From sequence record NZ_CP014126.2: a DNA stretch of 64,000 bases. One strand, given 5' to 3'. Below the pieces are notes generated by a model. The model searched no databases. It saw only the letters and a list, made by a program, of their open reading frames with translations, and was not told where the DNA came from. A program made the position numbers and the translations under genes. Source of the DNA: a plasmid. This document shows, one piece after another, positions 1,059-19,969 of the stretch. Every line of letters begins with the position of its first letter. The stretch's first letter is position 1.

Positions 1059-1155
1059 CTTGCAGCAATATAAAAGCATGCTGCAATGTTGCTGCAAACG
1101 TGTTGAGCGCAGCAATTTTTTACTATAGATTGTCTTGCAGCAAGATTGCTGCTTG
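1059..1155. promoter_or_regulatory. parA promoter/operator region with about 5 copies of TGCAGCAA / TTGCTGCA in both orientations
   Basis: cttgcagcaa...tgctgcaatgttgctgcaa...gcgcagcaat...cttgcagcaagattgctgc lies directly upstream of parA. The same octamer is iterated downstream of the partition genes. Confidence 0.5.
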
Positions 1156-1168
1156 ATAGAGAGGGTGT

Positions 1169-1807
1169 ATGGCTTGGATTGTTGGATTCATTTCCCAAAA
1201 AGGTGGTGTTGGTAAGAGCACAATGTCTCGTGCTTTTGGTCGTGAGGCGAACGCTGGCGGCATTACTACAAAAATAGCTGACCTTGATACTGAACAAGCT
1301 ACGACGACTGACTGGCATCGTAGACGCCTTTCGAATGGACTTCCCCCTGCATGTTCAGTAGAGGTGTTTAAAACAGCTTCTCAAGCTCTGTCCGTTGCAG
1401 ATAACGTTGATCTTCTTATTCTTGATGGCCCTGCTCGTGCAAGTAAGGGGACAGCAGAAATTGCTAAAGTAGCTGATCTCGTTGTGCAGCCGACCGGCGC
1501 CTCTCTTGATGATTTGATTCCCGCTATAAAAGTTTTTCACGCGCTTGTTAAAGAGGGTATTCCACGAAACAAGCTCATATTCTCGTTAAGTAGAGTTGGG
1601 ACAGATGCTGAAGAGGCTGATGCTCGTGCCTATATATTAGAAGCTGGCTACGAGGTGCTTGATGGCTGCCTTTTCGAAAAACCTGCATATCGCAAAGCTA
1701 TGAATGCTGGACTTGCGGTAACTGAAACTCGATACAAAGGGCTTAATGAAAGAGCTGATGAACTGATTCAGGCCCTCATCAACAAAGTGGGAGAACAAAA
1801 TGGCTGA
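1169..1807 (+). CDS. parA: ParA-family partition ATPase, small type Ib (212 aa)
   Basis: Deviant Walker A motif KGGVGKST at the N-terminus. Size and layout match small ParA proteins. Followed by an overlapping small RHH gene. Confidence 0.85.
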   Translation: MAWIVGFISQKGGVGKSTMSRAFGREANAGGITTKIADLDTEQATTTDWHRRRLSNGLPPACSVEVFKTASQALSVADNVDLLILDGPARASKGTAEIAKVADLVVQPTGASLDDLIPAIKVFHALVKEGIPRNKLIFSLSRVGTDAEEADARAYILEAGYEVLDGCLFEKPAYRKAMNAGLAVTETRYKGLNERADELIQALINKVGEQNG

Positions 1808-2168
1808 TGTTTCTGCATTGAAAAATAAATTCAAAGCCAAATCCAAAGGATTAGGAACGCCTCCTGGACCTGATGATTATGCAACTAGTTTGAATTCTCC
1901 AGAAGTTGCTCCAGCCCCTGACACTTCTGCAGAAATAAAAGAATCCCCTGCAGTCGTGGCACTGCCGGAGCAGCCAACTCACGAACTTTATTTCAAACGT
2001 GATGGCAGAAGTATGCGAAAAACCAATCGCACTATTCCTTTTGCTACTCGTGTTTCAGCCGAGTTTGACCAACGTTTCAGGGATATAGCCTATCAAGAAG
2101 ACCTTAAGATAGTTGAGCTGCTTGAAAAAGCTCTGGAAGCTTATGCGGAAAAGCAAGGTTACAAGTAG
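1800..2168 (+). CDS. parG: Centromere-binding partner of ParA (ParG / type Ib ParB-like, ribbon-helix-helix C-terminus)
   Basis: Start overlaps the parA stop (ATGGCTGATG). The C-terminal segment TIPFATRVSAEFDQRFRDIAYQEDLKIVELLEKALEAY has a beta-strand then helix-helix RHH pattern. The N-terminal half is Pro/Ala-rich and unstructured-looking. Confidence 0.6.
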   Translation: MADVSALKNKFKAKSKGLGTPPGPDDYATSLNSPEVAPAPDTSAEIKESPAVVALPEQPTHELYFKRDGRSMRKTNRTIPFATRVSAEFDQRFRDIAYQEDLKIVELLEKALEAYAEKQGYK

Positions 2169-2570
2169 CTGCAAGATTGCTGCAATCTTGCAGTAATCAT
2201 TTGAATCTTTCCTGATCTTCCTTCTGTACTATCATTCAGCATCTAAGTTTGCTGCTATCTATCTGCAAGATAGCAGCAAACTTGCTTAGGCTGGTTTGCC
2301 CAATTTTCGACTCATGATGTGTTGCATCTTTCTGCAATCTTGCAGCTATCTTAATTGTGAGCTTCATAATGTTCACACTAAAAGATTGCTGCAAGAATGC
2401 AGCAATCATGCTGATGGTTTTCATCCCTTGTTACCTACGATTTTATGCAAAATACTTGCAGCAAGCTTGCTGCTATCTTTCAGGCTTTCATCATCTACTA
2501 AACAGCTATCCACTCCAGTATTTACAGGATGACTGCAATCTTACAGCAATCTTGCAGCAATCTTGCTATA
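2166..2570. repeat. Centromere-like iteron array: at least 6 palindromic units TGCAGCAA-N3-4-TTGCTGCA between parG and parM
   Basis: Examples: ctgcaagattgctgcaatcttgcag, ttgctgctatctatctgcaagatagcagcaaacttgc, gattgctgcaagaatgcagcaatcatgctg, acttgcagcaagcttgctgctatc, gactgcaatcttacagcaatcttgcagcaatcttgct. The ORFs called inside this region (2236-2424 -, 2296-2532 +, 2357-2602 +) are low-complexity artefacts. Confidence 0.55.
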
Positions 2571-2699
2571 AGTTTGCCGTAGCTACTATGAGTTTTAAGT
2601 GAGATAAATATGAGATATTTTAGTTGCTGATATGTTTCTTTTACCAGTGATCGTGTATATTTGTCTCATATAGTTCTCAAATAAAGGGTGTTAAGAGAT

Positions 2700-3656
2700 A
2701 TGAAAATGTTCATCGATGATGGTTCTACAAACGTTAAACTCGCCTGGCATGACAAGGATTGTGTGAAGACACATTTGAGCCCTAATAGCTTCAAGCGTGA
2801 ATGGTCAGTAGCCTTTGGTGACAAACCTGTGTTCAATTACACCATGAACGGCGAGCAGTACTCTTATGATCCGATTGCACCTGAAGCAGTGAAAACAACG
2901 AATATTGCGTGGCAGTACAGTGACGTGAACGTAGTTGCTGTGCACCATGCGCTTCTGCAGACTGGCCTCAAACCCTGCGAAGTGGACATTACGGTCACAC
3001 TGCCACTGACTGAGTTTTATGATCACAATAACCAGCCAGCTGCAGCGAGCATCGAAAAGAAAAAAGCGAGTCTGCTGCGTCCGGTTTCACTGAACGGTGG
3101 TGAAAGCTTTAAAATCCGCAGTGTCTCGGTAATGCCCGAATCTATTCCTGCCGGATTTGAACTACTGAGCGAGCTGGACCTGCTCGATTCACTTCTCATT
3201 GTTGATTTGGGGGGGACGACGCTCGATATTTCACAGGTACGCGGTCGCATGAGTGGTATTACACGTATTCATGGCGATGCAACGATCGGGGTATCTCTGG
3301 TCACAACTGCAGTAGCTGACGCGCTTCGTGTTGCAGGAACGCGGGGTAGCAGCTATCTTGCCGATGATATTATTGTCCATCGCAATGATGATGCTTACCT
3401 TGAGCGCCGTATAAACGATCTCTCCCGCGTGAGTCTGGTCAAAAACACCATTACTGAATCACTCGAACGTCTGACTCAGCGTGTTCTAAGCGCCATGGCG
3501 GCGTTTGAAGGTTATACCCATGTAATGGTTATTGGCGGTGGTGCTGAAATTATTGCCGAAGCCGTTCGTACGCACTGTGGTGTGAGGGCAGAGCGCTTTT
3601 ATAAAACCGACTCATCCCAGTTTGATTTGGTCAGAGGGATGATTGCTATCGGATAA
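2700..3656 (+). CDS. parM: ParM/StbA actin-like plasmid segregation ATPase
   Basis: [18 protein letters not shown]...[32 protein letters not shown]...[19 protein letters not shown] is the R1 ParM/StbA N-terminal signature. The first ATG is at 2700; the track starts at an upstream GTG at 2688. Confidence 0.85.
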
Positions 3657-3660
3657 CGTC

Positions 3661-4026
3661 ATGGATACGCGCAGAAAAATCCAGTTTTACATTAATCCTA
3701 AGAGCAGCCTCGGTGAGGCTTATGCTGACAGTCACACCGATGAAACACCGCAGGGGGAACGCGGTCGACTCTGGAAGGCCGCGATGCTGAGCGGGTTTGC
3801 ACTTGAGCGTATCGATCCACGCCTCCCGTTTTTACTGTCTGAACTGCTGAGTGAAAACACGACAGCTGAAGAAGTGATTCAGGTTATCCGGGCGGTCTGT
3901 CCTAAAAAAATGACAGCCCAGTCTATGGCTGAGGCGGAAAATGAGATAGAACCCGTTGATGCTGCCAAAAATGACACTGTGGACGAAACACGCAGCAATG
4001 CGAAAGGTATGTTTGGTGTCAGTTAA
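3661..4026 (+). CDS. parR: ParR/StbB centromere-binding adaptor for ParM
   Basis: MDTRRKIQFYINPKS...PQGERGRLWKAAMLSGFALERIDPRLPFLLSELLSENTT resembles R1 ParR. ATG at 3661 lies 5 nt after the parM stop; the track starts at an upstream TTG at 3643. Confidence 0.75.
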   Translation: MDTRRKIQFYINPKSSLGEAYADSHTDETPQGERGRLWKAAMLSGFALERIDPRLPFLLSELLSENTTAEEVIQVIRAVCPKKMTAQSMAEAENEIEPVDAAKNDTVDETRSNAKGMFGVS

Positions 4027-4041
4027 CTTTATGAGGGTGCT

Positions 4042-4284
4042 ATGAACAGGGTGTTTATACTGGGAGCGGGATTCCTGGGATTCAGAAAGCTAACTGGTAA
4101 AGACAGGAAGAGTGCAGGGGAATGGGGCTTCCTAATCAGCATGCTATTTATCGTTCCACTGCTGTTCTGGGAAAGCCCCTCTGTCATAATATCTGTAGTT
4201 CTTCAGTTGATGTGGGGGGCAACAGCAACTCGATCAGCTTTTTTGGCTAATGAAACATGGAAAAAAAATAAACAGCAGCGATGA
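4042..4284 (+). CDS. small hydrophobic hypothetical protein
   Basis: 80-aa ORF with two predicted transmembrane segments downstream of parR; no recognisable family. Confidence 0.3.
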   Translation: MNRVFILGAGFLGFRKLTGKDRKSAGEWGFLISMLFIVPLLFWESPSVIISVVLQLMWGATATRSAFLANETWKKNKQQR

Positions 4285-5412: not shown

Positions 5413-5661
5413 GCTGTGGTTTATGTGGAATGCAATTTAAACAAAAAAATAAGTTACCATTCCTCTGAAGTTTATTTTCTGAACAGGAATTATTCAGCCT
5501 TGAACCACTTCGGTATGCTTACTGGCAGGGAGGAAAGTTGACGGGTGGTAAGACATAGCCGGAAAATCGATTTCCCCGCCGGGATTTAATCTGCCATGCT
5601 TATTCTGAAGCCCTCAATCGGGCAATGCGCTTTTATCTTTCACTTTATGCAGGAAGAAATA

Positions 5662-6660
5662 ATGATAAAAAATTACAGAATCCCGGGACTGACCGCGGTG
5701 GCATTTCTCCTCATAAGTACCATCGCAGGTGCTGCAGAAGCGCGCTGGACGTTTGACGGCGATATCCACAACAATTCCCTTGCTGTCAGTCCCGATGAAA
5801 AAACGGCGGTGGCGTCCTACAGTGAGCGCTCAGACGTGGTGGTCTATGATCTGGCTGCCGGGAAAGTCAGAAAGGTGATGAAGGGCTACGTCACCCCCCG
5901 TAATGCACTTTTCTCTCCGGACGGTAAGGCCATATTTCTTTCTGACAGCAGTCTCGGCGTAGTCAAAAAAATCAGCACCGGGACGCTTGACGTGGCGGCC
6001 ACGCTGCCGCTGGGGCCCGGGGCATTCGGCACGGCCATAAGTCGTGACGGTCAGCGACTGTATGTGAATAACGAGGCCGCCAGCACGCTCTCGGTGTATG
6101 ACCTTACACATGACCGGCCCATTGCAGTTGTGACGGGTTTTGCCCAGCCCCGTCAGGGCATTAAAATCAGCCCGGACGGCAAAACCGTCTACGTCACCAA
6201 CTTTAAGGGCGATAAAATTACCCTGGTTGATGCCGTGACGGGCGACATTCGCGGCGAGATAACCGGCTTCAGCAAGCTGCGCGCCATTTCTGTCAGCGCA
6301 GACGGCCGCACACTGTACGCGGCTAACAGCGGCAGCAACACAATCGCCGTGGTTGACACGCAAAAGCACGTCATTACGGCAACCATTCCCGTGGGTCAGG
6401 ACCCTTACGGTGCCGCGCTGACGCCGGATAACCGCTATGTTTACAGCGGCAACCTTGGCGACAACAGCCTCTCCGTTATTGATACCGCCGCCGGTAAGGT
6501 GGTGTCCACCGTCACCGGACTGGATGCGCCCCGTCAGGCGATTGTCTTCAACAAGGACGGTACCCGCGCGTGGGTGCTGAATAAAGACCTCAGCATTGCG
6601 GTGGTTGACCTGAAAAAGAACCGTGTCATGGCCACGATTAAAAGCCCGCCGCAGACCTGA
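5662..6660 (+). CDS. secreted YVTN-family beta-propeller repeat protein
   Basis: Signal peptide MIKNYRIPGLTAVAFLLISTIAGAAEA. Repeated S/TxDG(K/R)xxYV(T/A)N blades: SPDGKAIFLSD, SRDGQRLYVNN, SPDGKTVYVTN, SADGRTLYAAN, TPDNRYVYSGN, NKDGTRAWVLN. An RBS-spaced ATG is at 5662; the track ORF starts at 5596. Confidence 0.75.
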   Translation: MIKNYRIPGLTAVAFLLISTIAGAAEARWTFDGDIHNNSLAVSPDEKTAVASYSERSDVVVYDLAAGKVRKVMKGYVTPRNALFSPDGKAIFLSDSSLGVVKKISTGTLDVAATLPLGPGAFGTAISRDGQRLYVNNEAASTLSVYDLTHDRPIAVVTGFAQPRQGIKISPDGKTVYVTNFKGDKITLVDAVTGDIRGEITGFSKLRAISVSADGRTLYAANSGSNTIAVVDTQKHVITATIPVGQDPYGAALTPDNRYVYSGNLGDNSLSVIDTAAGKVVSTVTGLDAPRQAIVFNKDGTRAWVLNKDLSIAVVDLKKNRVMATIKSPPQT

Positions 6661-6810
6661 CGCGAAACCTCCCTTACTCCAGCGCAGTGACGATCCTTCG
6701 CAAAGTGGGGTGGTTAATCACTTTTATAGATTTATTTTAGCTAAATAACCTGTTTTAAAGATTTACTCTGACATGCCTATAATCTTTCTGTCTACTCAGG
6801 AGATTCCGGC

Positions 6811-7971
6811 ATGAACGATAAAATATTCACCCTGCATAACGGTGCGCGTCCGCTGAGCGCGCTGAGCAGCCCGAAAGAGGCCATACGACAGTTCACGCCT
6901 AACTGGTTCGCCGCGACCATGGGGACCGGCATCCTGTCGCTGTCTCTGGCGCAGTTCCCCTGGCAGGTTCCGGGATTGCGCCTTGTCGCCGAGGGGCTCT
7001 GGATGTTTAACATCCTCCTGTTCAGCGTCTTTGCCGTGATGTATCTGGCCCGCTGGGTGATGTACTTCGGAGAGGCAAAGCGCATTTTCGGCCATTCAAC
7101 CGTGTCCATGTTCTTCGGCACCATCCCGATGGGCATGGCGACCATCATCAATGGCCTGCTGGCGTTCGGTCTTCCGCGCTGGGGCGCAGACGTTATTCAG
7201 GTGGCACACGCCCTGTGGTGGCTGGACGTGGCGATGTCGCTGCTGTGCGGCGTGTGCATTCCCTACATGATGTTTACCCGGCAGCAGCACAGTATTGACC
7301 AGATGACTGCCGTCTGGTTACTGCCGGTCGTGGCAGCCGAGGTCGCGGCGGTCAGCGGCGGCCTGCTGGCGCCGCACATTGCTGCCCCACACGCGCAGCT
7401 CGGCATCATTATTACCAGCTACGTGCTGTGGGCGTACTCCGTGCCGGTGGCGCTGAGCATCCTCGCCATTCTGCTGCTGCGTATGGCGCTGCACAAGCTA
7501 CCGCACGAAAGCATGGCGGCCTCAAGCTGGCTGGCGCTGGGTCCGATTGGCACCGGCTCGCTCGGCATGCTGGTCATCGGCGGAGATGCGCCCGGGGTGT
7601 TTGCCGCGGCGGGCATGCCGGAAATCGGTCACATCGCGCAGGGCGTGGGGTTCGTTGCCGGCATTCTCTTCTGGGGCTGCGGCCTGTGGTGGATGCTGCT
7701 GGCCACGCTGATAACCGTGCGATACTTCCGTGAAGGCATCCCGTTCAACCTTGGATGGTGGGGCTTTACCTTCCCGCTGGGCGTGTACACCGTGGCCACG
7801 CTCAAGCTGTCTACCCTGATTGACCTCGCATTCTTTAAAGGCTTCGGTGCGCTTCTTGTCGTCATACTGGCGGCCATGTGGCTGCTTGTCGCGGTGAAAA
7901 CAGTGCGTGGGGCATGGAGCGGTAAACTGTTTGTTTCTCCCTGTCTGGCAGGCCTGGATCGGAAGCCGTGA
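6811..7971 (+). CDS. TDT-family (TehA / C4-dicarboxylate / malate / Ssu1-type) anion transporter
   Basis: 386-aa polytopic membrane protein. Hydrophobicity pattern of 10 transmembrane segments; the N-terminal region PNWFAATMGTGILSLSL is typical of TehA-like proteins. Confidence 0.6.
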   Translation: MNDKIFTLHNGARPLSALSSPKEAIRQFTPNWFAATMGTGILSLSLAQFPWQVPGLRLVAEGLWMFNILLFSVFAVMYLARWVMYFGEAKRIFGHSTVSMFFGTIPMGMATIINGLLAFGLPRWGADVIQVAHALWWLDVAMSLLCGVCIPYMMFTRQQHSIDQMTAVWLLPVVAAEVAAVSGGLLAPHIAAPHAQLGIIITSYVLWAYSVPVALSILAILLLRMALHKLPHESMAASSWLALGPIGTGSLGMLVIGGDAPGVFAAAGMPEIGHIAQGVGFVAGILFWGCGLWWMLLATLITVRYFREGIPFNLGWWGFTFPLGVYTVATLKLSTLIDLAFFKGFGALLVVILAAMWLLVAVKTVRGAWSGKLFVSPCLAGLDRKP

Positions 7972-8567
7972 GTGAAACCAGCACATCGATGCAGGACTCG
8001 TTTTTACGCGAGGAATGCCTCGCGGCAGTCACCGCGCCGCATGTGGCCGCGCTGAATCGCTGGGTCAGCGGCCAGCGTCAGGCCGGTGCAGAACTGCCGT
8101 GGTTTGATCCGGCTGACGGCGGGGTTAGGGCCGGACTGCTCGTCCTGCTGCAGTCGCCGGCGCGCAGCAGCCCGTCACCGCGGTTTGTGTCGCGTGATAA
8201 CCCGGGGCCGGCCCAGCAGAACCTTGGGCGGTTTCTGGCGGAAGCCGGTATTTCGCGTCAGGACAGCGTGCTGTGGAATACGGTGCCCTGGGTCAGTCAC
8301 GGGCTGCAGAAACGGCCGTCAGCGGCGGACATCCGCAGAGGCTGCGCCTTGCTTGAGGACGTGCTGGCGTATCTGCCCGCGCTGCGCGTGGTGGTGCTGG
8401 CCGGTGCCGTAGCGGCTCAGGCCCGCGGGACGGTCAATCATCTGTACCCCGGCGTCCCCGTGTTGACGATGCCGCACCCCAGTCCGCTTTCGCTCTGCAC
8501 GAGTCCGGCGGTGACGGAAAACATTCGCCGGGTACTCTGCGAGGCACGGGCTGCGCTGGCAGGCTGA
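7968..8567 (+). CDS. uracil-DNA-glycosylase-superfamily fold protein with divergent active-site motifs
   Basis: Architecture matches family-4 UDG: motif-B-like MPHPSPLS near the C-terminus and a G-x-FLxxAGI...V(L)WNTVPW block. The canonical GE(A/G)PG motif A is replaced by LQSPA. The start GTG overlaps the stop of the transporter gene. Confidence 0.45.
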   Translation: MSETSTSMQDSFLREECLAAVTAPHVAALNRWVSGQRQAGAELPWFDPADGGVRAGLLVLLQSPARSSPSPRFVSRDNPGPAQQNLGRFLAEAGISRQDSVLWNTVPWVSHGLQKRPSAADIRRGCALLEDVLAYLPALRVVVLAGAVAAQARGTVNHLYPGVPVLTMPHPSPLSLCTSPAVTENIRRVLCEARAALAG

Positions 8568-8586
8568 GGGCGCCAGCAGAATAATA

Positions 8587-8615
8587 CTGACAGGTTTTGC
8601 AACCGGCTCTATACT
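8587..8615 (+). promoter_or_regulatory. sigma70-like promoter (CTGACA-17 nt-TATACT) driving the riboswitch-led operon
   Basis: Hexamers with 17-nt spacing sit ~10 nt upstream of the riboswitch aptamer. Confidence 0.45.
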
Positions 8616-8625
8616 CATATGACAA

Positions 8626-8680
8626 GGTGATGGCGTTCCACCTTTCCCAACCGCTCCGTTCCGGAGCTGATGACGCCTGA
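8626..8680 (+). ncRNA. fluoride riboswitch (crcB RNA motif) aptamer
   Basis: GGUGAUGGCGUUCCACC-uuuCCCAACC-GCUCCguuccGGAGC-UGAUGACGCCU matches the conserved GGnGAUGGnGUUCnnCC...AAC...stem...UGAUGAC(U/G)CCU layout. The loop GGCGU can pseudoknot with ACGCC. It sits 85 nt upstream of ppaC. Confidence 0.8.
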
Positions 8681-8764
8681 TGCGACTCTTGATTTTCAGG
8701 AGGTGCGTCAGGCCGTCCTTACTTTCTTCCCGGCCTGCGTACTTCCCTCTTCGGGGAGAGACCT

Positions 8765-9673
8765 GTGATACACGTTTTTGGCCACATCAATCCTGACAGC
8801 GACGCCATCTGCACGGCCTTCGTCACCGCGCACTGGCTGACCGGGCGCGGCATGGACGCCCGCGCATGGCGTCTTGGCGAAGCTAACCGCGAAACCCATT
8901 TTATCTTTGACACCGCCGGACTCACGCTGCCGCCACGGCTTGATATTCCGCTACAGGATGAACGGGTCTGGCTGGTCGATTTCACCGAGCCGGCGCAGGG
9001 ACCTGACGACCTGCTCCGGAGCAACATCGTGGGGATCACTGACCACCACCGGCTGGGCGGACTGATAACGCAACTGCCGCCGGAGGTACACATACGCCCG
9101 CTTGGCAGCAGCGCCACGCTGCTGTGGCTGCTTATGAACGCTGAAGCGCGACGCACGCTGCCCCCGACGCTTGCCATTCTTCTGCTGGGTGCACTCCTGA
9201 GCGACACCGTGAATCTTCGCTCGCCCACCACGACCGAAGACGATATCCGTTCGGCTACCGAGCTGGGCGTACTGTCCGGCGTAAACCGCAGAGCCTTCGC
9301 CCGTGACCTCCTTACGGCAAAAACTGACGTCAGCGGCCTCAGCGCACAGCTGCTGCTGGACAGGGACCTCAAGGCCTTCGTCATTGCCGGCACTGACGTG
9401 CGCATCGCCCAGATTGAGGTCAGCTCCCCGTCACAGGTTGCCACCGTGATGGACGACCTGCTCGCTGCCCTGGCGTATCTGGCAGACCAGTCGGGTGCTG
9501 GTTTGGCGGTGCTGATGCTGACCGACATCCGGGCCGGGTTTTCAACGCTTTATTTCGCCGGGCGGGAGAGCGTTAACGCGGCCTCCTGCTCCGTACCGGG
9601 TATGCTCAGCCGCAAAAAACAGCTTCTGCCGTGGCTTGAGTCCCGCCTCAACCAGAACGGGAGTTCATTATGA
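8765..9673 (+). CDS. ppaC: DHH-family, family II (Mn-dependent) inorganic pyrophosphatase
   Basis: N-terminus (M)IHVFGHINPDSDAIC is DHH motif I. DHH motif: GITDHHRLG. The C-terminus SRKKQLLPWL matches the PpaC C-terminal signature. GTG start follows a GGGGAGAG RBS. Confidence 0.8.
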   Translation: MIHVFGHINPDSDAICTAFVTAHWLTGRGMDARAWRLGEANRETHFIFDTAGLTLPPRLDIPLQDERVWLVDFTEPAQGPDDLLRSNIVGITDHHRLGGLITQLPPEVHIRPLGSSATLLWLLMNAEARRTLPPTLAILLLGALLSDTVNLRSPTTTEDDIRSATELGVLSGVNRRAFARDLLTAKTDVSGLSAQLLLDRDLKAFVIAGTDVRIAQIEVSSPSQVATVMDDLLAALAYLADQSGAGLAVLMLTDIRAGFSTLYFAGRESVNAASCSVPGMLSRKKQLLPWLESRLNQNGSSL

Positions 9674-10095
9674 CCTGCTACACCCATGCATTGATACTTG
9701 TGAACGATAAAGACGACGGCACCCTCCTGCTGAAGCGGGCGGTCGCGCTGGCGCAGCCGCTCGGCATGAAAATCACCCTGGCCCACATCAGCGACGACTA
9801 CCGGGAAATGAACTACGTGTCCGACAGCCTGATGGACGACGTCGTGTCGGAAGAGGTGCTGAAATCCAAAGCGTTTATGAGCGAGCTGGCGGCCTCCGTG
9901 CCTGAGACGGTAGACATGCGGGAGCTGGTGACCATGCGCCGCTTTGAGGACGTGGAGAAGTGCATCGCTGAGCTGGGCGTGGACCTCGTGCTTGCCGGGC
10001 ACCGAAACCGCTTTATGGGAATGCTGACGTCCCGCTCGGCGGAATACATTAACCACCTCACGGTGGATGTGCTTATCACTCACCTGAATGACTGA
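9670..10095 (+). CDS. universal stress protein (UspA family)
   Basis: 141 aa. HAL(I)LVNDKDDG...LAHISDD...GVDLVLAGHRNRF...VDVLITH resembles the Usp ATP-binding fold pattern. Overlaps the ppaC stop. Confidence 0.7.
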   Translation: MTCYTHALILVNDKDDGTLLLKRAVALAQPLGMKITLAHISDDYREMNYVSDSLMDDVVSEEVLKSKAFMSELAASVPETVDMRELVTMRRFEDVEKCIAELGVDLVLAGHRNRFMGMLTSRSAEYINHLTVDVLITHLND

Positions 10096-10110
10096 ACCGG
10101 GAGAAACTCT

Positions 10111-11400
10111 ATGCGCTTTACACTGGATAACGTGACCGCCCGTGAAATTCTTGACTCTCGCGGCAACCCCACCGTTGAAGTCGAAGCCCGGACCGTGGAC
10201 GGAATGATGGCGCGGGCCTCGGTGCCTTCCGGGGCCAGCACCGGCTCGCGCGAGGCCGCTGAGCGCCGCGACGGCGACGTACACCGTTTTGGCGGTAAAG
10301 GCGTACTGGATGCTGTCAGGACGGTTAATACGGAAATCTGCGAAGCCTTGCGCGGCAGGGACGTGCGCGAGCAGCGTCAGCTGGATAACATCATGCTGGC
10401 GCTGGACGGTACGCAGAGCAAGAGTCGGCTGGGTGCCAATGCCATTCTGGGCGTGTCGCTGGCGGTTGCCCGGCTGGCGGCACAGGCCTCGCACGAGCCG
10501 CTCTGGCGCTACCTGGGGGGCCTGCAGGCGAACCTGCTGCCCGTACCGTGCATGAACATTATCAACGGCGGCGTGCACGCCCGCGGTCAGGGCGCGGACT
10601 TTCAGGAGTTCATGATAGCGCCACACGGGGCACCCACGCTGCGCGAGGCCGTGCGTCAGGGCAGCGAGGTCTACCAGGCGCTGCGCCAGATCCTGCTGGA
10701 CAAGAACCTGTCCGCGGCAGTCGGCGACGAAGGCGGTTTTGCGCCCGCCGTATCGTCGAACCGCGACCCGCTGGCGTTTATCGTGCAGGCCATTGAGAAG
10801 GCGGGGTACAGGCCCGGAGAAGACATCAGCATCTGCATGGACCCTGCCTCAAGTGAGTTTTTCGCAGACGGAAAATATCATCTGCGCACGGAGGGCAGTG
10901 CGCTGAGCGCGGCGGAAATGACGGCGTACTACGGCGAGCTGATGGACCAGTTTCCCGTCATTCTGCTGGAAGACGGCCTGGCAGAAGATGACTGGTCGGG
11001 CTGGAAGCATCTGCACCAGCAGCTTGCGGGCAGGGCCGAGCTGGTTGGTGACGACCTGTTTGTCACCAACGTGAAGTACATCCAGCGCGGCATTGACGAA
11101 AACCTCGCCAGCGCCGCATTGATTAAACTCAATCAGATAGGCTCGCTTAGCGAAACGCTGGACGCCGTGGCGCTCTGCCAGCGGCACGGGTGGGGCGCGT
11201 TCATGTCCCACCGCAGTGGGGAAACGACGGACACATTTCTTGCCGACCTCACGGTAGCCCTGCGCGCGGGACACCTGAAAACCGGTGCGCCGTGCCGCGG
11301 CGAACGCGTGGAAAAGTACAACCAGCTGATGCGCATTGAGCAGGCGCTGGGTGAGGACGCTCACTATGCGGGGCTTCATGCGTTTGTGCGCCGCACGTAA
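10111..11400 (+). CDS. eno: enolase (phosphopyruvate hydratase)
   Basis: 429 aa. N-terminus (V)TAREILDSRGNPTVEVEARTVDG; SHRSGETTDTFLADL catalytic region; IKLNQIGSLSETLDAV signature. Confidence 0.9.
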   Translation: MRFTLDNVTAREILDSRGNPTVEVEARTVDGMMARASVPSGASTGSREAAERRDGDVHRFGGKGVLDAVRTVNTEICEALRGRDVREQRQLDNIMLALDGTQSKSRLGANAILGVSLAVARLAAQASHEPLWRYLGGLQANLLPVPCMNIINGGVHARGQGADFQEFMIAPHGAPTLREAVRQGSEVYQALRQILLDKNLSAAVGDEGGFAPAVSSNRDPLAFIVQAIEKAGYRPGEDISICMDPASSEFFADGKYHLRTEGSALSAAEMTAYYGELMDQFPVILLEDGLAEDDWSGWKHLHQQLAGRAELVGDDLFVTNVKYIQRGIDENLASAALIKLNQIGSLSETLDAVALCQRHGWGAFMSHRSGETTDTFLADLTVALRAGHLKTGAPCRGERVEKYNQLMRIEQALGEDAHYAGLHAFVRRT

Positions 11401-11443
11401 CAGATCCACCGGACGGCCAGCGGCCGGCACAGGAGCACAGTCT

Positions 11444-12145
11444 TTGGCACCTTCAACGCTGATTCTCCTGCGCCATGGCGAAAGCCAGTGGAACCGGGAA
11501 AACCGTTTTACCGGATGGACAGACGTGCCGCTGACGGACCGGGGGCGGCAGGAGGCTGACCGGGCCGGTGACGTGCTGCGGGACGCGGGCCTGCTGCCCG
11601 ATCGGGTCTTCACCTCGGTGATGACGCGCTGTGTTCACACGGTCTGGCGGGTGCTGGACCGTCTTGGCCGCAGCTGGACGCCCGTGGACAAACACTGGCG
11701 GCTGAACGAGCGGCACTACGGTGCGCTGCAGGGGCTGAACAAGGAAGCGGCTGCCCGGATGATGGGTGCAGAGACCGTCCGGCTCTGGCGCAAAAGCTTC
11801 AGCGGCATTCCCCCCGCGGACGCAGGGGCTCCGGCGCAGCTGCGTCGGGACCCGCGCTACAGCCGCGTTGCGCTGGCCGACCTGCCTGCGACGGAAAGCC
11901 TGGAAATGACGCTGCGTCGCGTCATGCCCTACTGGCAGCACGCCGTGATGCCGCAGATACTCTGCGGAAGTACCGTTCTGGTCGTGGCGCACGGCAACAC
12001 GCTGCGCGCCCTGGCCGCCTTCCTGGACGGCATGCCACACGACAGCTTGGCACAGTTGCATATCCCGACCGGCGTGCCGGCCGTATACCAGATGGATGCG
12101 GCCGCACAGGTCGTTTCCCGTTATGTTCTGAATATAAAAAAATAA
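11444..12145 (+). CDS. gpmA: 2,3-bisphosphoglycerate-dependent phosphoglycerate mutase
   Basis: LILLRHGESQWNRENRFTGWTDVPLT is the histidine-phosphatase RHGE motif. The probable start is TTG at 11444, 8 nt after AGGAG. The track ORF (from 11336) overlaps the eno 3' end and is probably over-extended. Confidence 0.75.
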   Translation: MAPSTLILLRHGESQWNRENRFTGWTDVPLTDRGRQEADRAGDVLRDAGLLPDRVFTSVMTRCVHTVWRVLDRLGRSWTPVDKHWRLNERHYGALQGLNKEAAARMMGAETVRLWRKSFSGIPPADAGAPAQLRRDPRYSRVALADLPATESLEMTLRRVMPYWQHAVMPQILCGSTVLVVAHGNTLRALAAFLDGMPHDSLAQLHIPTGVPAVYQMDAAAQVVSRYVLNIKK

Positions 12146-12150
12146 AAGGA

Positions 12151-12531
12151 GTGAACGTGAATCAGCTTTTTGCTGTCATCACCGGCGGTGCTTTAGGGTG
12201 TGTTATCCGCTGGCAGCTGGGCGCGCGCCTGAACGCGCTTTTTCCGGACCTGCCGCCGGGGACGCTGCTGGTCAACCTGCTGGGAGGGTTTATCATCGGA
12301 GCGGCGCTGGCGTATTTTCTGCGCCATCCCGGCCTCGATCCGGCCTGGCGGCTGCTCATTACCACCGGGCTGTGTGGCGGAATGACGACCTTCTCCACGT
12401 TCTCGGCTGAGGTTTTTGCCCTGCTGCAGTCCGGCAGCTATGCCTGGGCAGCCGCCTCGGTGCTGATACACGTGCTGGGTTCGCTGGCCATGACGGCGGC
12501 CGGATTTTATATCATGACGCTGTGTGGTTAA
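12151..12531 (+). CDS. crcB: CrcB/Fluc fluoride ion channel
   Basis: 126 aa with four transmembrane segments and the GGxTTFSTF signature (CGGMTTFSTFSAE). GTG start follows AGGAG. Confidence 0.85.
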   Translation: MNVNQLFAVITGGALGCVIRWQLGARLNALFPDLPPGTLLVNLLGGFIIGAALAYFLRHPGLDPAWRLLITTGLCGGMTTFSTFSAEVFALLQSGSYAWAAASVLIHVLGSLAMTAAGFYIMTLCG

Positions 12532-12546
12532 CCCGAGGGAGACCTT

Positions 12547-12566
12547 AGTGCAGTGACCGCTGCACT
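12547..12566 (+). terminator. stem-loop (agtgcag-N6-ctgcact) immediately 3' of crcB
   Basis: 7-bp inverted repeat 16 nt after the crcB stop. Confidence 0.4.
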
Positions 12567-12664
12567 GAGGTATATTGTTCAGAAGCGCTCTCTGCAGGCC
12601 AGACCTGACAGGGTTTACGCTTGTAATGCTTCCCGTACACCTGAGGCGCTGCTGTGAAAGAATT

Positions 12665-13078
12665 TCAGGCCTGCCTGTTCTGGTAAAGGTCCCAGCGATT
12701 GCCGTAGATGTCCTCAAATACGACAACCATTCCGTATTCTTCCTCCCGTGGCTCCTGAAAGAAGTGGACGCCTTTTGCCTTCATAGCATTGTAGTCGCGC
12801 CAGAAGTCGTCGGTCTGCAGGAACAGAAAAACCCGTCCGCCGCACTGATTGCCGATAAAGCCTTCCTGCCGGTCGTTCGACGCGCGGGCAAGAAGAATAG
12901 CACAGTCGCTGTCAGGGGCCGGCGTCACCACGACCCAGCGCTTACCCGGCTGCGGCGTGTCTTCAATGAGGGTAAAGCCCAGCTTATCGGTGTAGTACTC
13001 AATTGCACGATCGTAGTCATCGACCACGACCGCCACGTATCCCATACATCGCTTCTGTTTTCTCATCTGCTGCTCCAT
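12665..13078 (-). CDS. VOC-family (glyoxalase / bleomycin-resistance fold) protein
   Basis: MGYVAVVVDDYDRAIEYYTDKLGFTLIED...ILLARA...GRVFLFLQTDDFWRDYNAMKAKGVHF is typical of a paired betaalphabetabetabeta module. Confidence 0.65.
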   Translation of the reverse strand: MEQQMRKQKRCMGYVAVVVDDYDRAIEYYTDKLGFTLIEDTPQPGKRWVVVTPAPDSDCAILLARASNDRQEGFIGNQCGGRVFLFLQTDDFWRDYNAMKAKGVHFFQEPREEEYGMVVVFEDIYGNRWDLYQNRQA

Positions 13079-13191
13079 CAGTTACGGCATTACGCCCGTT
13101 ATAATCAGCTTTATATCAAATACGGCGTTCAGTTATCTGTACTGATTCTGCACTGATACCCTCAGACCTGACATTGTAAGCATCTGAGCAG

Positions 13192-15363
13192 TCAGGATTG
13201 TGGGCCCAATCTTGTAAGAGCCTGCTCAACCTTTTCAGCATCCTGCTCCAGTATGGCTCTCTCATCGGGAGTGAGCGGGACCTCTTCGAGGTAACGCCGG
13301 ATGGATGCTTTACTCTCCAGTATCAGCCCGCGCGCGCTATCCTTCAGCAGGTTAAAATCGCAGCCGATGCAGGCCATCCGGTGCGGGCAACTGCTCCAGA
13401 AGGGGTTCGTACAGTATGAGTCGCCCAGATCGTAGTAGGTCGCGGGCCCGGACAGGCTGGCGGCTTCAGGATCGTGGTCAACCAGCACGCTTATCATATG
13501 AGCGACCCTGTCGGCTTTGACGAACGAGGCAGCCAGCTGAGTCGGGCGGATGCGAAGATAGTGCATTGTAGACTGGGGCGTTGAATGGCCCGTCCACTGC
13601 ATCAGTTCGTACAGCGACATGCCCTGCGGTACGCTCGCCAGCGCGGTCACGGCTGAGGCCCGCCCCCGGTGGCTGGTTATCATTCCGCCACTGTCTTCAC
13701 AAGGCACGCCCGCTCTTGCGCATAGCATCGGTATCACGGTGCGGTTGAGGATAGCGCTGCCGGCAGGCTTACCCCGGTACTGAAACAGAAGCCGGACTTT
13801 CTCACCGGTTCGCTCGTCAGCGAGCAAAGCCTGTTCTGCCGGACGCTCATCCAGCCATATGTCGACGTATTTTTTCACCACGGCCGCCACCGGTTTAACA
13901 AAGGCTTTTGAGGTTTTTCCGGCAGGGATATGCAGGTAACACAGGGTTCCTGCCGGGATGATACTTCCGTCGTCCTTCACGATATCGTCCGCCTGCGGCG
14001 CGATGCACCCGGTTGTCAGGCGGAGCAGTTCGTTCTTTCTTACCCCCGCATGGGTCCAGATGACGGCCATTGCCTGCAGCATGGCCAGTGGATAATGTAT
14101 TTCAGTGAGCAGATCTTCCTGACGCAGATTGAGGCTGGCCCAGATGAGCTTCAGCCAGACCGGATCGTCAATAACACGGGGATTGACGCCGCGACGGAAC
14201 AGCGGCGTATCCGGTGTGGAAAGATGGCGGGCAGGGCTGAAGTGCAGGCGCCCCCAGCCCCAGTTTTCGTAATCAATCATAAAACGGCGCAGAGAATAGA
14301 TAAAATGCGCCCTGGAATGCGGCATCATGGGCTCGCCGGAGCGCACCGATTTGCCGGTGCCCCTTTCCGTGCCCAGCTGAAGCTCATCCACGTTCATCCG
14401 GCCTACCGCCGCAATGAAGCTGGCGCAGGTTTCCATTGTCCAGTCTGCCGGTTCCCGAACCTCCGGATGCTCCTTTTTCAGCCAGAGGCCGCAGCGCAGA
14501 ATAAAGCTGTACTGGCTTTCACGGGTGCGCGGCCTGAGCACCGACGTTTCCCGCCAGCGCCGGCACCAGTGCACCCAGGCCGGATCGACGCCTTCGACCG
14601 GCTTTTCGTACCATTTTTTATAGTTTCGCATCCTCACCGGGGCGCTGATAATCCCCAGTGCGGCAAGTGCATGTGAAACGCGGCCGACGTAACGGGATAT
14701 TCCCTTGTCTGTCCCGCTCTGGGCGCGCCAGAGGAGTTCAGGCGTAAACGTTTCAAGCCGGGGATCCCTGTTCATGATCATCAGTGTTGCCAGTATACCC
14801 GAGACATGATTTTTCTGGCTGGTCGGGGCATAACCCAGCGACGTCAGCGTATCAGTCAGCCGGTCCAGCTCCTGGTGATAAAAAGCCTGGCCGAAGATGG
14901 CAGAAGCATAGAGCGCGGGTTTACGTATATCAGGCAGGCTGAGCGGGTCATGCAAATCAGCCAGATGCCAGGCAAAAGCGGCCATTAACGGACGGCCCTC
15001 CCTGACTTCCCGGCACAGCGTCAGCCAGCGTTCCTGCGGCCAGCACCAGCAGGGCATGCCGTCTGCATGCATTTCGCGCAGCAATCCGGCTATCACCAGC
15101 CCCGTGATTTTGCTGCCGCATCCGCTTCCGGCGGCAATGTCCATCAGCGGCCTGATGAGGTCCGGCACCGGCTTCGTTCGCAGCATACGGGACCGGCTGT
15201 GAGCGCTGCTCAGTGCCGTCCGTTCAGCGAGGGTCAGTGACGCCTCAAGCCGGTATTCAGTCATGTCGAACGGATGCCGGCTGTTTTCAATCGGTGTGTG
15301 TGGGCTCATGTTATTTCTCTGTTCTGAAAATGAGGTTCGCCATCCTGATATCTGCCGTTTCAA
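13192..15363 (-). CDS. large tyrosine recombinase (723 aa) with a long N-terminal extension
   Basis: The C-terminus carries ...ITSHRGRASAVTALA... (HxxR) and ...GHSTPQSTMHYLRI (H...Y nucleophile). It overlaps the upstream small recombinase gene by 53 nt, which suggests an operon. Confidence 0.7.
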   Translation of the reverse strand: MKRQISGWRTSFSEQRNNMSPHTPIENSRHPFDMTEYRLEASLTLAERTALSSAHSRSRMLRTKPVPDLIRPLMDIAAGSGCGSKITGLVIAGLLREMHADGMPCWCWPQERWLTLCREVREGRPLMAAFAWHLADLHDPLSLPDIRKPALYASAIFGQAFYHQELDRLTDTLTSLGYAPTSQKNHVSGILATLMIMNRDPRLETFTPELLWRAQSGTDKGISRYVGRVSHALAALGIISAPVRMRNYKKWYEKPVEGVDPAWVHWCRRWRETSVLRPRTRESQYSFILRCGLWLKKEHPEVREPADWTMETCASFIAAVGRMNVDELQLGTERGTGKSVRSGEPMMPHSRAHFIYSLRRFMIDYENWGWGRLHFSPARHLSTPDTPLFRRGVNPRVIDDPVWLKLIWASLNLRQEDLLTEIHYPLAMLQAMAVIWTHAGVRKNELLRLTTGCIAPQADDIVKDDGSIIPAGTLCYLHIPAGKTSKAFVKPVAAVVKKYVDIWLDERPAEQALLADERTGEKVRLLFQYRGKPAGSAILNRTVIPMLCARAGVPCEDSGGMITSHRGRASAVTALASVPQGMSLYELMQWTGHSTPQSTMHYLRIRPTQLAASFVKADRVAHMISVLVDHDPEAASLSGPATYYDLGDSYCTNPFWSSCPHRMACIGCDFNLLKDSARGLILESKASIRRYLEEVPLTPDERAILEQDAEKVEQALTRLGPQS

Positions 15364-16312
15364 TCGCGCCAGCCATCCGGGCAGCCAGGTCCCTGCCAGA
15401 AAGATGAATATAAATCTGTGTTGTGGTCAGGTCGCGGTGTCCTGCATAGGTGGCAAGTTCGTGCAACTTCCAGCCCGCGCGGGCAAGGTGTGTGAGTCGC
15501 AGGTGCCGGAAGGTATGGGTTGAGATGTCCGGCATCCCAGACTCAAGCGCCCATTTCCGTACCGTTTTGCTCCAGGTCCAGAATGAAAGCGGCCCGCCCT
15601 GATTACGATCGGACTCAGAACGGAACAGGGCACCTCTTACGATTCCGGTCCGCTTCATCTGCATAAGGTGCGCGGCCAGCACTGGCACTACTGCCGGGCT
15701 GTAACAGACAATTCGTTCACGCCGGCTCTTGGTGGTTTCTGCCCGGATGCGGATGAGCCGGTGAGCAAAGTCGAAGTCGTCAATACTTAGCGAGGTAATT
15801 TCAGACCGACGCAGCGCGCCGTAATAGGTTAATGCCAGCATCAGGCGGTCACGCAGTGGGGAAGCGGCGGCATGATAAAGAAAACACTGCCACTGCGCAT
15901 CGTCAGGAATGCGCGGCAGCTTTACAACGCGGGGAACCAGTCCCCGGCCGGAACTCAGCATGCCGGGCGTGCCGGATCGGGGCAGCGGATTGACCGTGCA
16001 AAGATCCAGGTACATGAGAAAGTCATACCAGAGGCGGATCGCCGACAGGCGAAGCTGGAGCGTGGCGCTGGCCGCGGAAAAAGGCATCCCGGGTAACTGA
16101 GGACTAATATAGGCAGCCAGGTCTTCAAACCGCGCCTTTTCAGGTTTAATTCCGTTCTGGCTGCAGAACGCAAAGTAATGACGGAGGGCATTGCGGTAGG
16201 CTGTTAGCGTGGCCTGCGCCCGCCCCAGATCGGATAACAGTTGCAGCCAGCGCTCTGCCAGCAACAGAACGTGTTCACTCGGTGGAATCAGCATTGCATT
16301 CTCCTCTGACAA
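15311..16312 (-). CDS. tyrosine recombinase, XerD-like (333 aa)
   Basis: C-terminus HTFRHLRLTHLARAG...LATYAGHRDLTTTQIYIHL gives the complete R..HxxR..H/Y catalytic set. It is the first gene inside the right end of the element. Confidence 0.8.
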   Translation of the reverse strand: MSEENAMLIPPSEHVLLLAERWLQLLSDLGRAQATLTAYRNALRHYFAFCSQNGIKPEKARFEDLAAYISPQLPGMPFSAASATLQLRLSAIRLWYDFLMYLDLCTVNPLPRSGTPGMLSSGRGLVPRVVKLPRIPDDAQWQCFLYHAAASPLRDRLMLALTYYGALRRSEITSLSIDDFDFAHRLIRIRAETTKSRRERIVCYSPAVVPVLAAHLMQMKRTGIVRGALFRSESDRNQGGPLSFWTWSKTVRKWALESGMPDISTHTFRHLRLTHLARAGWKLHELATYAGHRDLTTTQIYIHLSGRDLAARMAGAIETADIRMANLIFRTEK

Positions 16313-16364
16313 CAGCTTTGCTGTTCAAAGTTTACTCAATCAATGTTGCATTCCACGTAACTTA

Positions 16365-16607
16365 CTAGAGCGCGTAGTTTGAACTAAAGACGTGCACACG
16401 CTCGGCAAAATCCTGATTTTTTATCTGGAACCACGGCGCGCCCATTTTAATGCCCAGCTTTTTTGCGCCGGCGCTGCGCGCGATGATGCAGCCGTCATTG
16501 TTCGACAGGACGACAACGGGCTTACCGCGCAGATCAGGGCGAAACAGTGCTTCGCAGCTGGCATAAAACGAATTGACGTCGGCCAGGCCAAACATTGGCA
16601 TGATCAC
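16365..16607 (-). pseudogene. umuC: umuC 5' fragment (first ~78 codons), fused to element-derived codons
   Basis: MFGLADVNSFYASCEALFRPDLRGKPVVVLSNNDGCIIARSAGAKKLGIKMGAPWF...HVFSSNY aligns with the N-terminus of the intact UmuC (MFALADANNFYASCETVFRPDLRGKPIVVVSNNDGCVIARSAEAKRLGVKMAAPLF...HVFSSNYEL), then ends in AL-stop. It overlaps the umuD stop. Confidence 0.85.
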
Positions 16608-18314: not shown

Positions 18315-18707
18315 ATGGAGATATTCATGGCCTTTCAGAGCCCGGCCCAGAACTACACCGAAACGCGCCTGAGTCTGGGCGATCTGGTGCATCTTTCCCC
18401 TTACTCTACCTATCTGATGCGCAGCGAAAGCGACTGTCCAGATGCTGGTATTATTAAAGGGTCCGTGCTGGCAATCGATCGCGCGCTGACACCGGCACAC
18501 GGTCAGTTAATCGTTGCCGAGCTCGAGGGAGAACTGACGCTGAGGCGGCTGCTGCTTAATCCGGTTCCTGCCCTGCAGGCGCTGGACGCGGACGAAACTG
18601 TTACGCTGCTTGATGTAAGCCATGTGCTGCCAGTGTGGGGTGTGGTTGCCTATGCCCTCACCGATGTAGCCGGAGTGGGATTTAACGGACTGGCAGGAGA
18701 TGAGTAA
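18315..18707 (+). CDS. UmuD'-like protein: begins at the post-cleavage position and has a degenerate Ser/Lys dyad
   Basis: It aligns with UmuD from GFPSPAADYV onward (AFQSPAQNYTE...). The ~24-residue arm and Cys-Gly cleavage site are absent; an in-frame TAA lies 2 codons upstream. Catalytic GDSM becomes SDCP (Ser->Cys) and VKKL becomes LRRL (Lys->Arg). Confidence 0.7.
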   Translation: MEIFMAFQSPAQNYTETRLSLGDLVHLSPYSTYLMRSESDCPDAGIIKGSVLAIDRALTPAHGQLIVAELEGELTLRRLLLNPVPALQALDADETVTLLDVSHVLPVWGVVAYALTDVAGVGFNGLAGDE

Positions 18708-19969
18708 TGTTTGCGCTGGCCGATGCCAACAATTTTTACGCCTCATGCGAAACCGTATTCAGGCCCGATCTGCGTGGTAAACCGATTGTCGTCGTGTCGA
18801 ACAACGACGGATGCGTTATCGCACGATCGGCCGAGGCAAAGCGTTTAGGGGTTAAAATGGCCGCCCCGCTGTTCCAGAATGAGCGTTATTTCAGGCAGAA
18901 CGGTGTGCACGTGTTCAGCTCAAACTACGAGCTATACGGCGACATATCTGCACGCATGATGGCCATACTGGGCGAGATGGCCGCGGGACAGGAAGTCTAT
19001 TCCATCGATGAGTCATTTCTGGACGTTACCGGGATTGATAACCTTATCCCGCTTGAGGCATTCGGGCAGCAGATGCGCGAGCGTATCCGGAAGGAAACCG
19101 GGCTGATAATCGGCGTGGGGTTCGGGCCGACCAAAACCCTGGCCAAACTTGCTAACCATGCATCTAAAAAGTGGACGCAGACGAATGGCGTCGTAGATCT
19201 GTCAGACAGAAGCCGACAACGAAAACTCCTTCATCTGACTGATGTCAGTGATATCTGGGGCATTGGCCGGCGGATCAGCCTGCGCATGAACCAGCTGGGA
19301 ATCACCACGGCACTGCAGCTCGCTGACAGCAATGTCAGCATGATACGTAAGAACTTCGACGTTATCGTCGAGCGCACCGCGCGTGAACTCAATGGTGAGT
19401 CTTGCCTGGCACTTGAAGACGCACCTCCGCCTAAGCAGCAGATAGTGAACTCACGTTCTTTTGGCCAGCGCGTTACACAGTTAGAAGATATGCAGCAGGC
19501 GCTCGTGCTTTATGCCACGCGTGCTGCGGAAAAGCTCAGGCAGCAGAATTCACGCTGCCGCCATATAAGCGTCTCGATCGCCACCGGTCGCCACGGTGAT
19601 GAACCGCAGTATTCAAATACGGCCTCACGCATATGCGATTATCCGACGAACGACACGCGGGACATTATTGAATCAGCACTTCGAGGCCTCAGCACTATCT
19701 GGCAGGAGGGTTACCGGTATGCGAAAGCCGGCGTAATGCTGGGTGATTTTTACCAGTCAGGCGTGGCACAGTTCGACATGTTCAGTGAGCAGCAGCCGCG
19801 TGCAAATGCAGATGCATTAATGGCAGCGCTGGACGGCATCAATCGCGCAGGCAAAGGAAAGGTCTGGTTCGCGGGTCAGGGAAATCGCGACAGTTCATGG
19901 CAGATGAAGCGTGAAATGCTGTCGCCGCGCTATACCACGCGCATAAAAGATATTCCGCGAATTAAATAA
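18707..19969 (+). CDS. umuC: UmuC, Y-family DNA polymerase V catalytic subunit (intact, 420 aa)
   Basis: MFALADANNFYASCETVFRPDLRGKPIVVVSNNDGCVIARS...SIDESFLDVTG...full length. Start overlaps the upstream stop (TAATG). Confidence 0.9.
   Translation: MFALADANNFYASCETVFRPDLRGKPIVVVSNNDGCVIARSAEAKRLGVKMAAPLFQNERYFRQNGVHVFSSNYELYGDISARMMAILGEMAAGQEVYSIDESFLDVTGIDNLIPLEAFGQQMRERIRKETGLIIGVGFGPTKTLAKLANHASKKWTQTNGVVDLSDRSRQRKLLHLTDVSDIWGIGRRISLRMNQLGITTALQLADSNVSMIRKNFDVIVERTARELNGESCLALEDAPPPKQQIVNSRSFGQRVTQLEDMQQALVLYATRAAEKLRQQNSRCRHISVSIATGRHGDEPQYSNTASRICDYPTNDTRDIIESALRGLSTIWQEGYRYAKAGVMLGDFYQSGVAQFDMFSEQQPRANADALMAALDGINRAGKGKVWFAGQGNRDSSWQMKREMLSPRYTTRIKDIPRIK

Follow-up and report, generated by a model that had tools for sequence, protein, structure and literature searches.

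The 64,000-nucleotide stretch of plasmid DNA analyzed here (sequence record NZ_CP014126.2; hereafter, the window) carries four partition genes, parA, a small gene that is a candidate for a type Ib 'ParB', parM and parR, which are all co-directional and lie in tandem within positions 1059-4284. We read this region as two independent head-to-tail partition modules, each with its own centromere, and put the probability of this reading at roughly 0.8. The palindromic repeat TTGCWGCAA, arrayed on both sides of the parA-small gene pair, most likely belongs to the ParA/small-protein module and does not form a centromere shared by the two modules. An earlier note, made from the letters of this DNA, had placed parA, the small gene, parM and parR correctly, and its call of a type I locus (small ParA plus small DNA-binding protein) in tandem with a type II locus (ParM/ParR) is supported. 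Its proposal that the repeat array serves ParR, or is shared with it, is not supported. The argument draws on direct observations: the genes, the repeats with their statistics and conservation, and the way each set is distributed along with its module.

The repeat unit is a 9-base-pair (bp) palindrome, TTGCWGCAA, recurring with an 11-bp phase. Seven exact copies occur in the 64 kb, where 1.67 ± 1.35 are expected (0 of 100 shuffles reach seven), and all seven lie inside 1060-1143 or 2177-2560. The total number of copies with at most one mismatch is not enriched; their distinctive feature is clustering, 17 of the 31 in the window falling inside the two array stretches. Phased GCWGC-N6-GCWGC pairs number seven in the window versus 1.14 expected, five of them within the two arrays. 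The downstream array comprises about 16 units in six clusters of two to four units each, and the last upstream pair stands 34 and 23 bp 5' of the parA start. The spacings between downstream cluster starts (83, 80, 57, 70 and 74 bp) follow no consistent helical phasing, and no conclusion is drawn from them. That a centromere-like array flanks the parA locus on both sides, as the earlier note had described, is supported. It had also described the repeat as inverted pairs of octamers separated by 3-4 nucleotides; the repeat itself stands, while the spacing does not (the octamers are 2 bp apart, giving one 9-bp palindrome per 11 bp), and whether neighbouring octamers read as direct or inverted is set by the central base only. 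Both arrays are clustered and conserved and occur together with the module, as would be expected of type Ib centromere and operator arrays. Isolated one-mismatch copies (TCGCAGCAA and TTGCTGCAT, at 19-27 and 154-162) lie inside an upstream minus-strand open reading frame (ORF); they are unphased and probably due to chance.

Four observations assign the repeat to the ParA/small-protein module. First, the motif remains constant while the ParMR lineage changes. It is found upstream of parA and directly behind the small gene in nine enterobacterial loci, with positions unchanged in Salmonella IncI-gamma, E. coli IncK2/Z and Klebsiella IncFIA plasmids and in Erwinia persicina, Hafnia, Citrobacter and Pantoea contigs; across the motif-bearing enterobacterial loci, identity to the window's proteins is 79-96% for ParA and 58-80% for the small protein. 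In three of these lineages (IncI-gamma, Hafnia and E. persicina), ParA is 79-82% identical to that of the window but ParM only 40-41% and ParR only 21-29%, and a different palindrome, ATACTCAAnnTGAGTAT, which is also found upstream of the pB171-type parM in pMAR7, sits between the last TTGCWGCAA unit and parM. Second, the motif is present without ParMR: parMR is absent from plasmids of Xanthomonas phaseoli, X. citri and Acidovorax that encode ParA and a homologue of the small protein (42-47% identical), yet 11-bp-phased GCWGC units lie just before parA and directly after the small-gene stop (in X. citri, for example, ATGCAGCAAtcTTGCTGCAA). Third, the same ParR N-terminus occurs without the motif: residues 1-72 of ParR, which cover the region aligned with the solved structure of pB171 ParR, recur unchanged in three Pantoea plasmids (L001, L006 and L007) that have no TTGCWGCAA upstream of parM. 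Fourth, the predicted recognition strand of the small protein, described below, does not vary among homologues, matching a GCWGC core that is constant across the family. The earlier note had tied the motif to ParMR as well; it travels instead with ParA and the small protein, whatever the ParMR lineage and even where there is none.

The positions of the motif also bear on the possibility that the repeats are replication iterons, or sites of an unrelated regulator, and not partition sites. Clustered short repeats on plasmids are often Rep iterons, and in one of the Klebsiella plasmids (p11305-1) repE lies about 900 bp upstream of parA. Nonetheless, we regard this explanation as extremely improbable, as the window has no rep gene beside the motif and the positions relative to parA and the small gene are kept in IncI-gamma/K1, IncK2/Z, IncFIA/IncU, IncP and Xanthomonas replicons, so that the motif follows the par module and not the replicon type.

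The type II module has an actin-like ParM, with the gene for its ParR adaptor directly behind parM. ParM matches Pfam StbA_N (E 1e-72) and the ParM C-terminal domain (E 4e-62), and aligns over its full length with the R1 ParM structure 1mwk (E 2.4e-143). ParR matches Pfam Plasmid_stab_B (E 3e-19) and the pB171 ParR structure 2jd3 (E 9e-12); with R100 ParR it shares 45% identity over 84 residues. TGAG-N7-TGAG-N7-TGAG is found a single time in the 64 kb, at 2588-2620, where 0.01 occurrences are expected. Two inverted units follow at 2659-2680 and share bases with a conserved -10-like TATATT (2657-2662), around which the parM promoter probably lies; promoter positions rest here on conservation and on analogy with R100. 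Seven loci with the window's ParR type, three of them without the TTGCWGCAA array, were compared. In most, two to four 11-bp-phased TGAG units are found at about -122 to -79 of parM (the Logan locus has one exact TGAG only), and CTCA or CTCT stands at -35 and -24 of parM in all seven loci except one, which has them at -41 and -30. What the window has in common with the three array-less Pantoea plasmids is the last ~110 bp before parM, including the TGAG iteron set. These phased iterons, three on one side of the putative promoter and two on the other, make up a candidate parC upstream of parM with an R100-like layout.

A shared centromere, at which ParR would bind the TTGCWGCAA array too, or instead, and both motors would act on one repeat set, is very unlikely. 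The array does lie directly upstream of parM, its last unit ending ~17 bp from the first TGAG iteron; ParR proteins such as that of R100 also bind 11-bp-phased iterons upstream of parM; and in all the enteric relatives examined, the two modules lie next to each other. Against this stand the ParR proteins with identical first 72 residues in motif-free plasmids, the unchanged motif beside ParR proteins only 21-29% identical, the motif in loci without any ParR, and the separate, conserved and statistically unique iteron set next to parM. The earlier note had itself named parC-like iterons upstream of parM as the observation that would speak against a role of the array for ParR, and such iterons are what we found.

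ParA has the deviant Walker A motif KGGVGKST at residues 11-18 and no N-terminal DNA-binding extension, matching the small (~200 amino acids) Walker-A ATPases without a DNA-binding domain that are typical of type Ib systems. Its Pfam matches are CbiA (E 9e-8) and MipZ, and it aligns at residues 4-205 with positions 1-202 of the 203 in the NCBIfam profile NF041546 (ParA_partition), with an E-value of 3e-26 that is below the family's cut-off. The small protein has no Pfam match at E <= 0.01 and no NCBIfam family. An alignment of 59 sequences divides its family into three parts: a conserved N-terminal tail (MADxSxLK...LGxPP...APEVAP), a variable linker, and a C-terminal strand-helix-helix segment consisting of RTxxFATRV followed by two helices. 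R73, R77, A82, T83, R84 and V85 are invariant in the 59 homologues. The AlphaFold model places the helices at 87-99 and 104-119, with a predicted local distance difference test score (pLDDT) of ~89-94, and nearly all Foldseek matches, each individually weak, are ribbon-helix-helix proteins (CopG, ORF56, ParG 1p94, Arc, AmrZ). The C-terminal domain thus models as a putative ribbon-helix-helix, and we propose that the RTxxFATRV strand is its DNA-recognition strand, the invariance of this segment across the 59 homologues being in line with a GCWGC core that is unchanged from Pantoea to Acidovorax. The gene had been called parG in the earlier note, with a ribbon-helix-helix product: the predicted fold agrees with the model and the Foldseek matches, but membership in the ParG family is rejected, given the lack of a Pfam or NCBIfam match and a probability of 1.2% when the 59-sequence profile is compared with annotated ParG by hhalign.

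Conservation of the spacers was assessed by aligning four Pantoea-lineage loci, in all of which the operator pair TCTTGCAGCAAGATTGCTGCTT before parA is invariant while its flanks vary; the position of this pair, -34/-23, is kept within 1 bp in eight of nine scored loci, the Citrobacter locus deviating. Columns under TTGCWGCAA units are 57% invariant and those of the ParR-site region 60%, versus 18% in the remaining spacer (Fisher p ~1e-16 and ~1e-10, respectively), a contrast that may be inflated, since aligners lock repeats together. This caveat is one of several points that weigh against the reading of two independent modules. Every enterobacterial member examined also has parMR downstream, so that the independence of the modules rests on the lineage swaps and the three non-enteric loci. 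A consensus promoter scan, which returned five promoters against 5.9 expected (that is, background), picked out none upstream of parM. R1 has ten iterons, the proposed parC only five. Finally, we found no experiments on binding, repression or stability for this ParA/small-protein family in a literature that was searched incompletely; searching by the motif strings returned primer sequences only.

If the two-module reading is correct, ParA, the small putative ribbon-helix-helix protein and the two TTGCWGCAA arrays would constitute a type Ib module, in which one small-protein dimer would occupy each palindrome and neighbouring dimers would lie one helical turn apart. Arc and CopG dimers bind their operators in this dimer-per-site, one-turn manner. 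The upstream array, which covers the parA promoter region, would act as an operator that represses parA, and probably as a centromere too, and the downstream array would provide a second centromere for assembly of the ParA-stimulating complex, with the conserved, disordered N-terminal tail of the small protein stimulating ParA. Such a layout would follow the parC1-parA-parB-parC2 logic of pB171 par2. The second module would be an R1-type ParMRC system: ParR would bind the five 11-bp TGAG iterons bracketing the parM promoter, repressing that promoter and capturing the ends of ParM filaments. Protein-DNA binding, the promoter positions and the partition activity of both modules are what we infer here from the sequences.

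With two candidate centromeres ~17 bp apart, cross-talk of the pB171 style is possible. Regulatory cross-talk in the pB171 double par locus, with ParB influencing the par1 promoter, was reportedly described by Ringgaard and colleagues in 2007. Instead of, or besides, being a second centromere, the downstream array might let the small protein control parMR expression, either as a roadblock to transcription reading through from parA or as a repressor or insulator of the parM promoter. We consider this unlikely: in the window and its relatives the array does abut the ParR iterons and putative parM promoter, no convincing intrinsic terminator was found between the small gene and parM, and the Pantoea lineage has 7-13 downstream units versus 2-4 elsewhere, but the non-enteric relatives have downstream units without parMR, which ties the ancestral role of these units to the type Ib module. 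It is doubtful, too, that the downstream array and the ParR iterons work as a single composite region for segregation and regulation in which the small-protein complex controls parMR expression or ParR loading. Were that so, the plasmid would coordinate, or switch between, ParA-type and ParM-type motors from one stretch of DNA, and the head-to-tail coupling kept despite ParMR swaps would be selected and not a historical accident.

Under the preferred reading of two independent modules, the locus is an ordinary double partition locus of a known kind and opens no new question. The order parA-small gene-parM-parR is found in every enterobacterial context examined (with parM cut by an IS5-family element in one Klebsiella plasmid), so the same-direction layout does not set the window apart, as the earlier note had supposed. 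By tblastn, the small protein matches 457 PLSDB plasmids, IncI-gamma, IncK/Z and Klebsiella IncFIA types among them. The par region as a whole matches no single PLSDB plasmid. Plasmids with both kinds of system are known to be frequent: a 2026 survey counted 971 in PLSDB that have type I ribbon-helix-helix and type II systems together, and described this pairing as reported before (PMC13245405). Two features distinguish the window and its Pantoea relatives: an R1-type ParMR as partner and the expanded downstream array. The main gain is clearer annotation: the widespread pair of a 'ParA family protein' and a 'hypothetical protein' becomes readable as a complete type Ib module, with TTGCWGCAA in an 11-bp phase as its candidate centromere motif, and a candidate compact parC is defined for the R1-like ParMR lineage in Pantoea and Erwinia plasmids. 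The natural module swaps also provide a clean set for testing centromere specificity, incompatibility and motor cross-talk.

Several of the loci compared differ further in the genes in and around the two modules. In Pantoea agglomerans CP126685 (L001, 2600-3840), and likewise in L006 and L007, ParMR is as in the window and there is no parA; its slot is occupied by another two-gene operon, encoding a 186-amino-acid protein (GNAT-like by eye) and a 128-amino-acid protein, neither of which has a Pfam match. This operon has its own 11-bp-phased GTATTACA/TGTAATAC repeats upstream (~2600-2650) and downstream (3712-3840), and as the GTATTACA repeats flank the replacement operon, the array upstream of parC again goes with whichever module sits upstream. 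In Acidovorax p3-T1 (L026, 2914-3228), the ParA/small-protein pair is followed not by parMR but by a 'ParC family partition-associated protein' (NF041544, E 6e-36), and a 94-amino-acid ORF takes the position of this gene in Xanthomonas phaseoli (L005, 2900-3184). The ParA/small-protein module may pair with different third components in different hosts. In Klebsiella pneumoniae p11305-1 (L004, IncFIA/IncU; 3115-4187), an IS5-family insertion truncates parM to 26 codons, and the type Ib module and its arrays are intact.

Features of the partition region and of the neighbouring umuC genes; positions are those of the window.
Feature	Position	Strand	Description
parA	1169-1807	+	212 amino acids; small deviant Walker-A partition ATPase
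Small gene ('parG' of the earlier note)	1800-2168	+	122 amino acids; type Ib 'ParB' candidate
parM	2700-3656	+	R1-type actin-like segregation ATPase; Pfam and structure match
parR	3661-4026	+	Predicted type II centromere-binding adaptor; Pfam Plasmid_stab_B
Conserved ORF	4042-4284	+	80 amino acids; 3' of parR; syntenic neighbour of the two systems
Upstream TTGCWGCAA array	1060-1154		Candidate operator and putative upstream centromere, analogous to parC1
Upstream units	1060; 1078/1089; 1107 (degenerate); 1135/1146		Three to four groups
Downstream TTGCWGCAA array	2166-2571		Candidate second type Ib centromere, analogous to parC2
Downstream cluster starts (units)	2166 (3), 2249 (3), 2329 (2), 2386 (2), 2456 (2), 2530 (4)		
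Three direct 11-bp iterons	2588-2620	+	ATGAGTTTTAA, GTGAGATAAAT, ATGAGATATTT; candidate distal half of a ParR-specific parC
Two inverted 11-bp iterons	2659-2680	-	TTTGAGAACTA, TATGAGACAAA (minus-strand reading); candidate proximal parC half and parM autorepression site
umuC fragment, residues 74-424	5430-4378	-	
umuC fragment, residues 1-76	16595-16368	-	
Second umuC-like gene	18707-19969	+	Intact

The start of the small gene overlaps the parA stop by 8 bp, and 531 bp separate the small gene from parM. ORFs of 62-81 amino acids in 2236-2602 were rejected as genes, the spacer beneath them being poorly conserved, and terminator-like matches in the spacer before parM correspond to the palindromic units and were not taken as terminators. 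A tblastn search of the rest of the 64-kb window found no second parA or parM. The 80-amino-acid ORF behind parR is present in all Pantoea-type loci and has no Pfam or NCBIfam match; its product is hydrophobic and, by eye, looks like two membrane spans. Downstream of the par genes and convergent with them, umuC is split by an insertion of ~10.9 kb (5431-16367) that contains genes for a lactonase-like protein, a TDT transporter, enolase, phosphoglycerate mutase, crcB and two tyrosine recombinases. The window derives from a plasmid of Pantoea/Erwinia type; its island at 5400-17000 matches several plasmids of Pantoea agglomerans and Erwinia at 98-100% identity.

Among known systems, the double par locus of pB171 (compared via its copy in pMAR7) was the one to which the earlier note had likened the window. 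The likeness holds for the design, in which par2 combines a small ParA and a small DNA-binding protein with arrays on both sides, next to a ParMR whose own ParR repeats adjoin the type Ib array. It fails for the type I module itself: ParA is 27% identical, the small proteins have no similarity detectable by BLASTP or hhalign, and the repeats are unrelated in sequence, so that homology to par2 is rejected. In addition, the pB171 loci are divergent and share their upstream region, whereas those of the window are co-directional and parMR adjoins the downstream array. The arrays at 1060-1154 and 2166-2571 are thus par2-like in their working and not members of par2. The type II module resembles the ParMRC of R1 and R100 in having 11-bp iterons on both sides of the promoter directly upstream of parM, but its layout is 3+2 units compared with 5+5 in R100 parC, its iterons have a TGAG core in place of the C-rich AAACCC type of R1 and R100, and its proximal iterons form an inverted pair where those of R1 and R100 are direct.

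The TP228 ParF/ParG/parH system is similar in the flexible N-terminal tail and C-terminal strand-helix-helix domain of its small protein (the Foldseek match to ParG, 1p94, has a root-mean-square deviation of 0.9 A over 34 columns) and in its short boxes arrayed at the operon. However, parH consists of tetramer boxes in one array upstream, whereas the window has 9-bp palindromes on both sides, and its small protein does not belong to ParG by sequence. Type Ib operons flanked by arrays on either side are known from pB171, pSM19035 and pESBL (PMC7602700). In the pESBL (IncI1) ParAB system, likewise, a small ParA is paired with an unannotated small protein, and octamer parS arrays lie upstream and downstream, a design validated there by an electrophoretic mobility shift assay and a stability assay (PMC7602700). 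The pESBL motif is GATAACAA, though, and its small protein is described as ~100 amino acids; pESBL was set aside as a relative on account of the different octamer.

The window's own family is the unnamed module, annotated as ParA plus 'hypothetical protein', of IncI-gamma, IncK/Z, Klebsiella IncFIA, Hafnia, Citrobacter and Erwinia plasmids, in which ParA is 79-82% and the small protein 58-59% identical to those of the window and the motif, operator position and gene order are alike. The plasmids that carry this module have a pB171-type ParMR with ATACTCAAnnTGAGTAT repeats, whereas the window and its Pantoea relatives have an R1-type ParMR; counting units with up to one mismatch, the latter have 7-13 downstream units in a spacer of 454-531 bp, compared with 2-4 units in 165-291 bp elsewhere.

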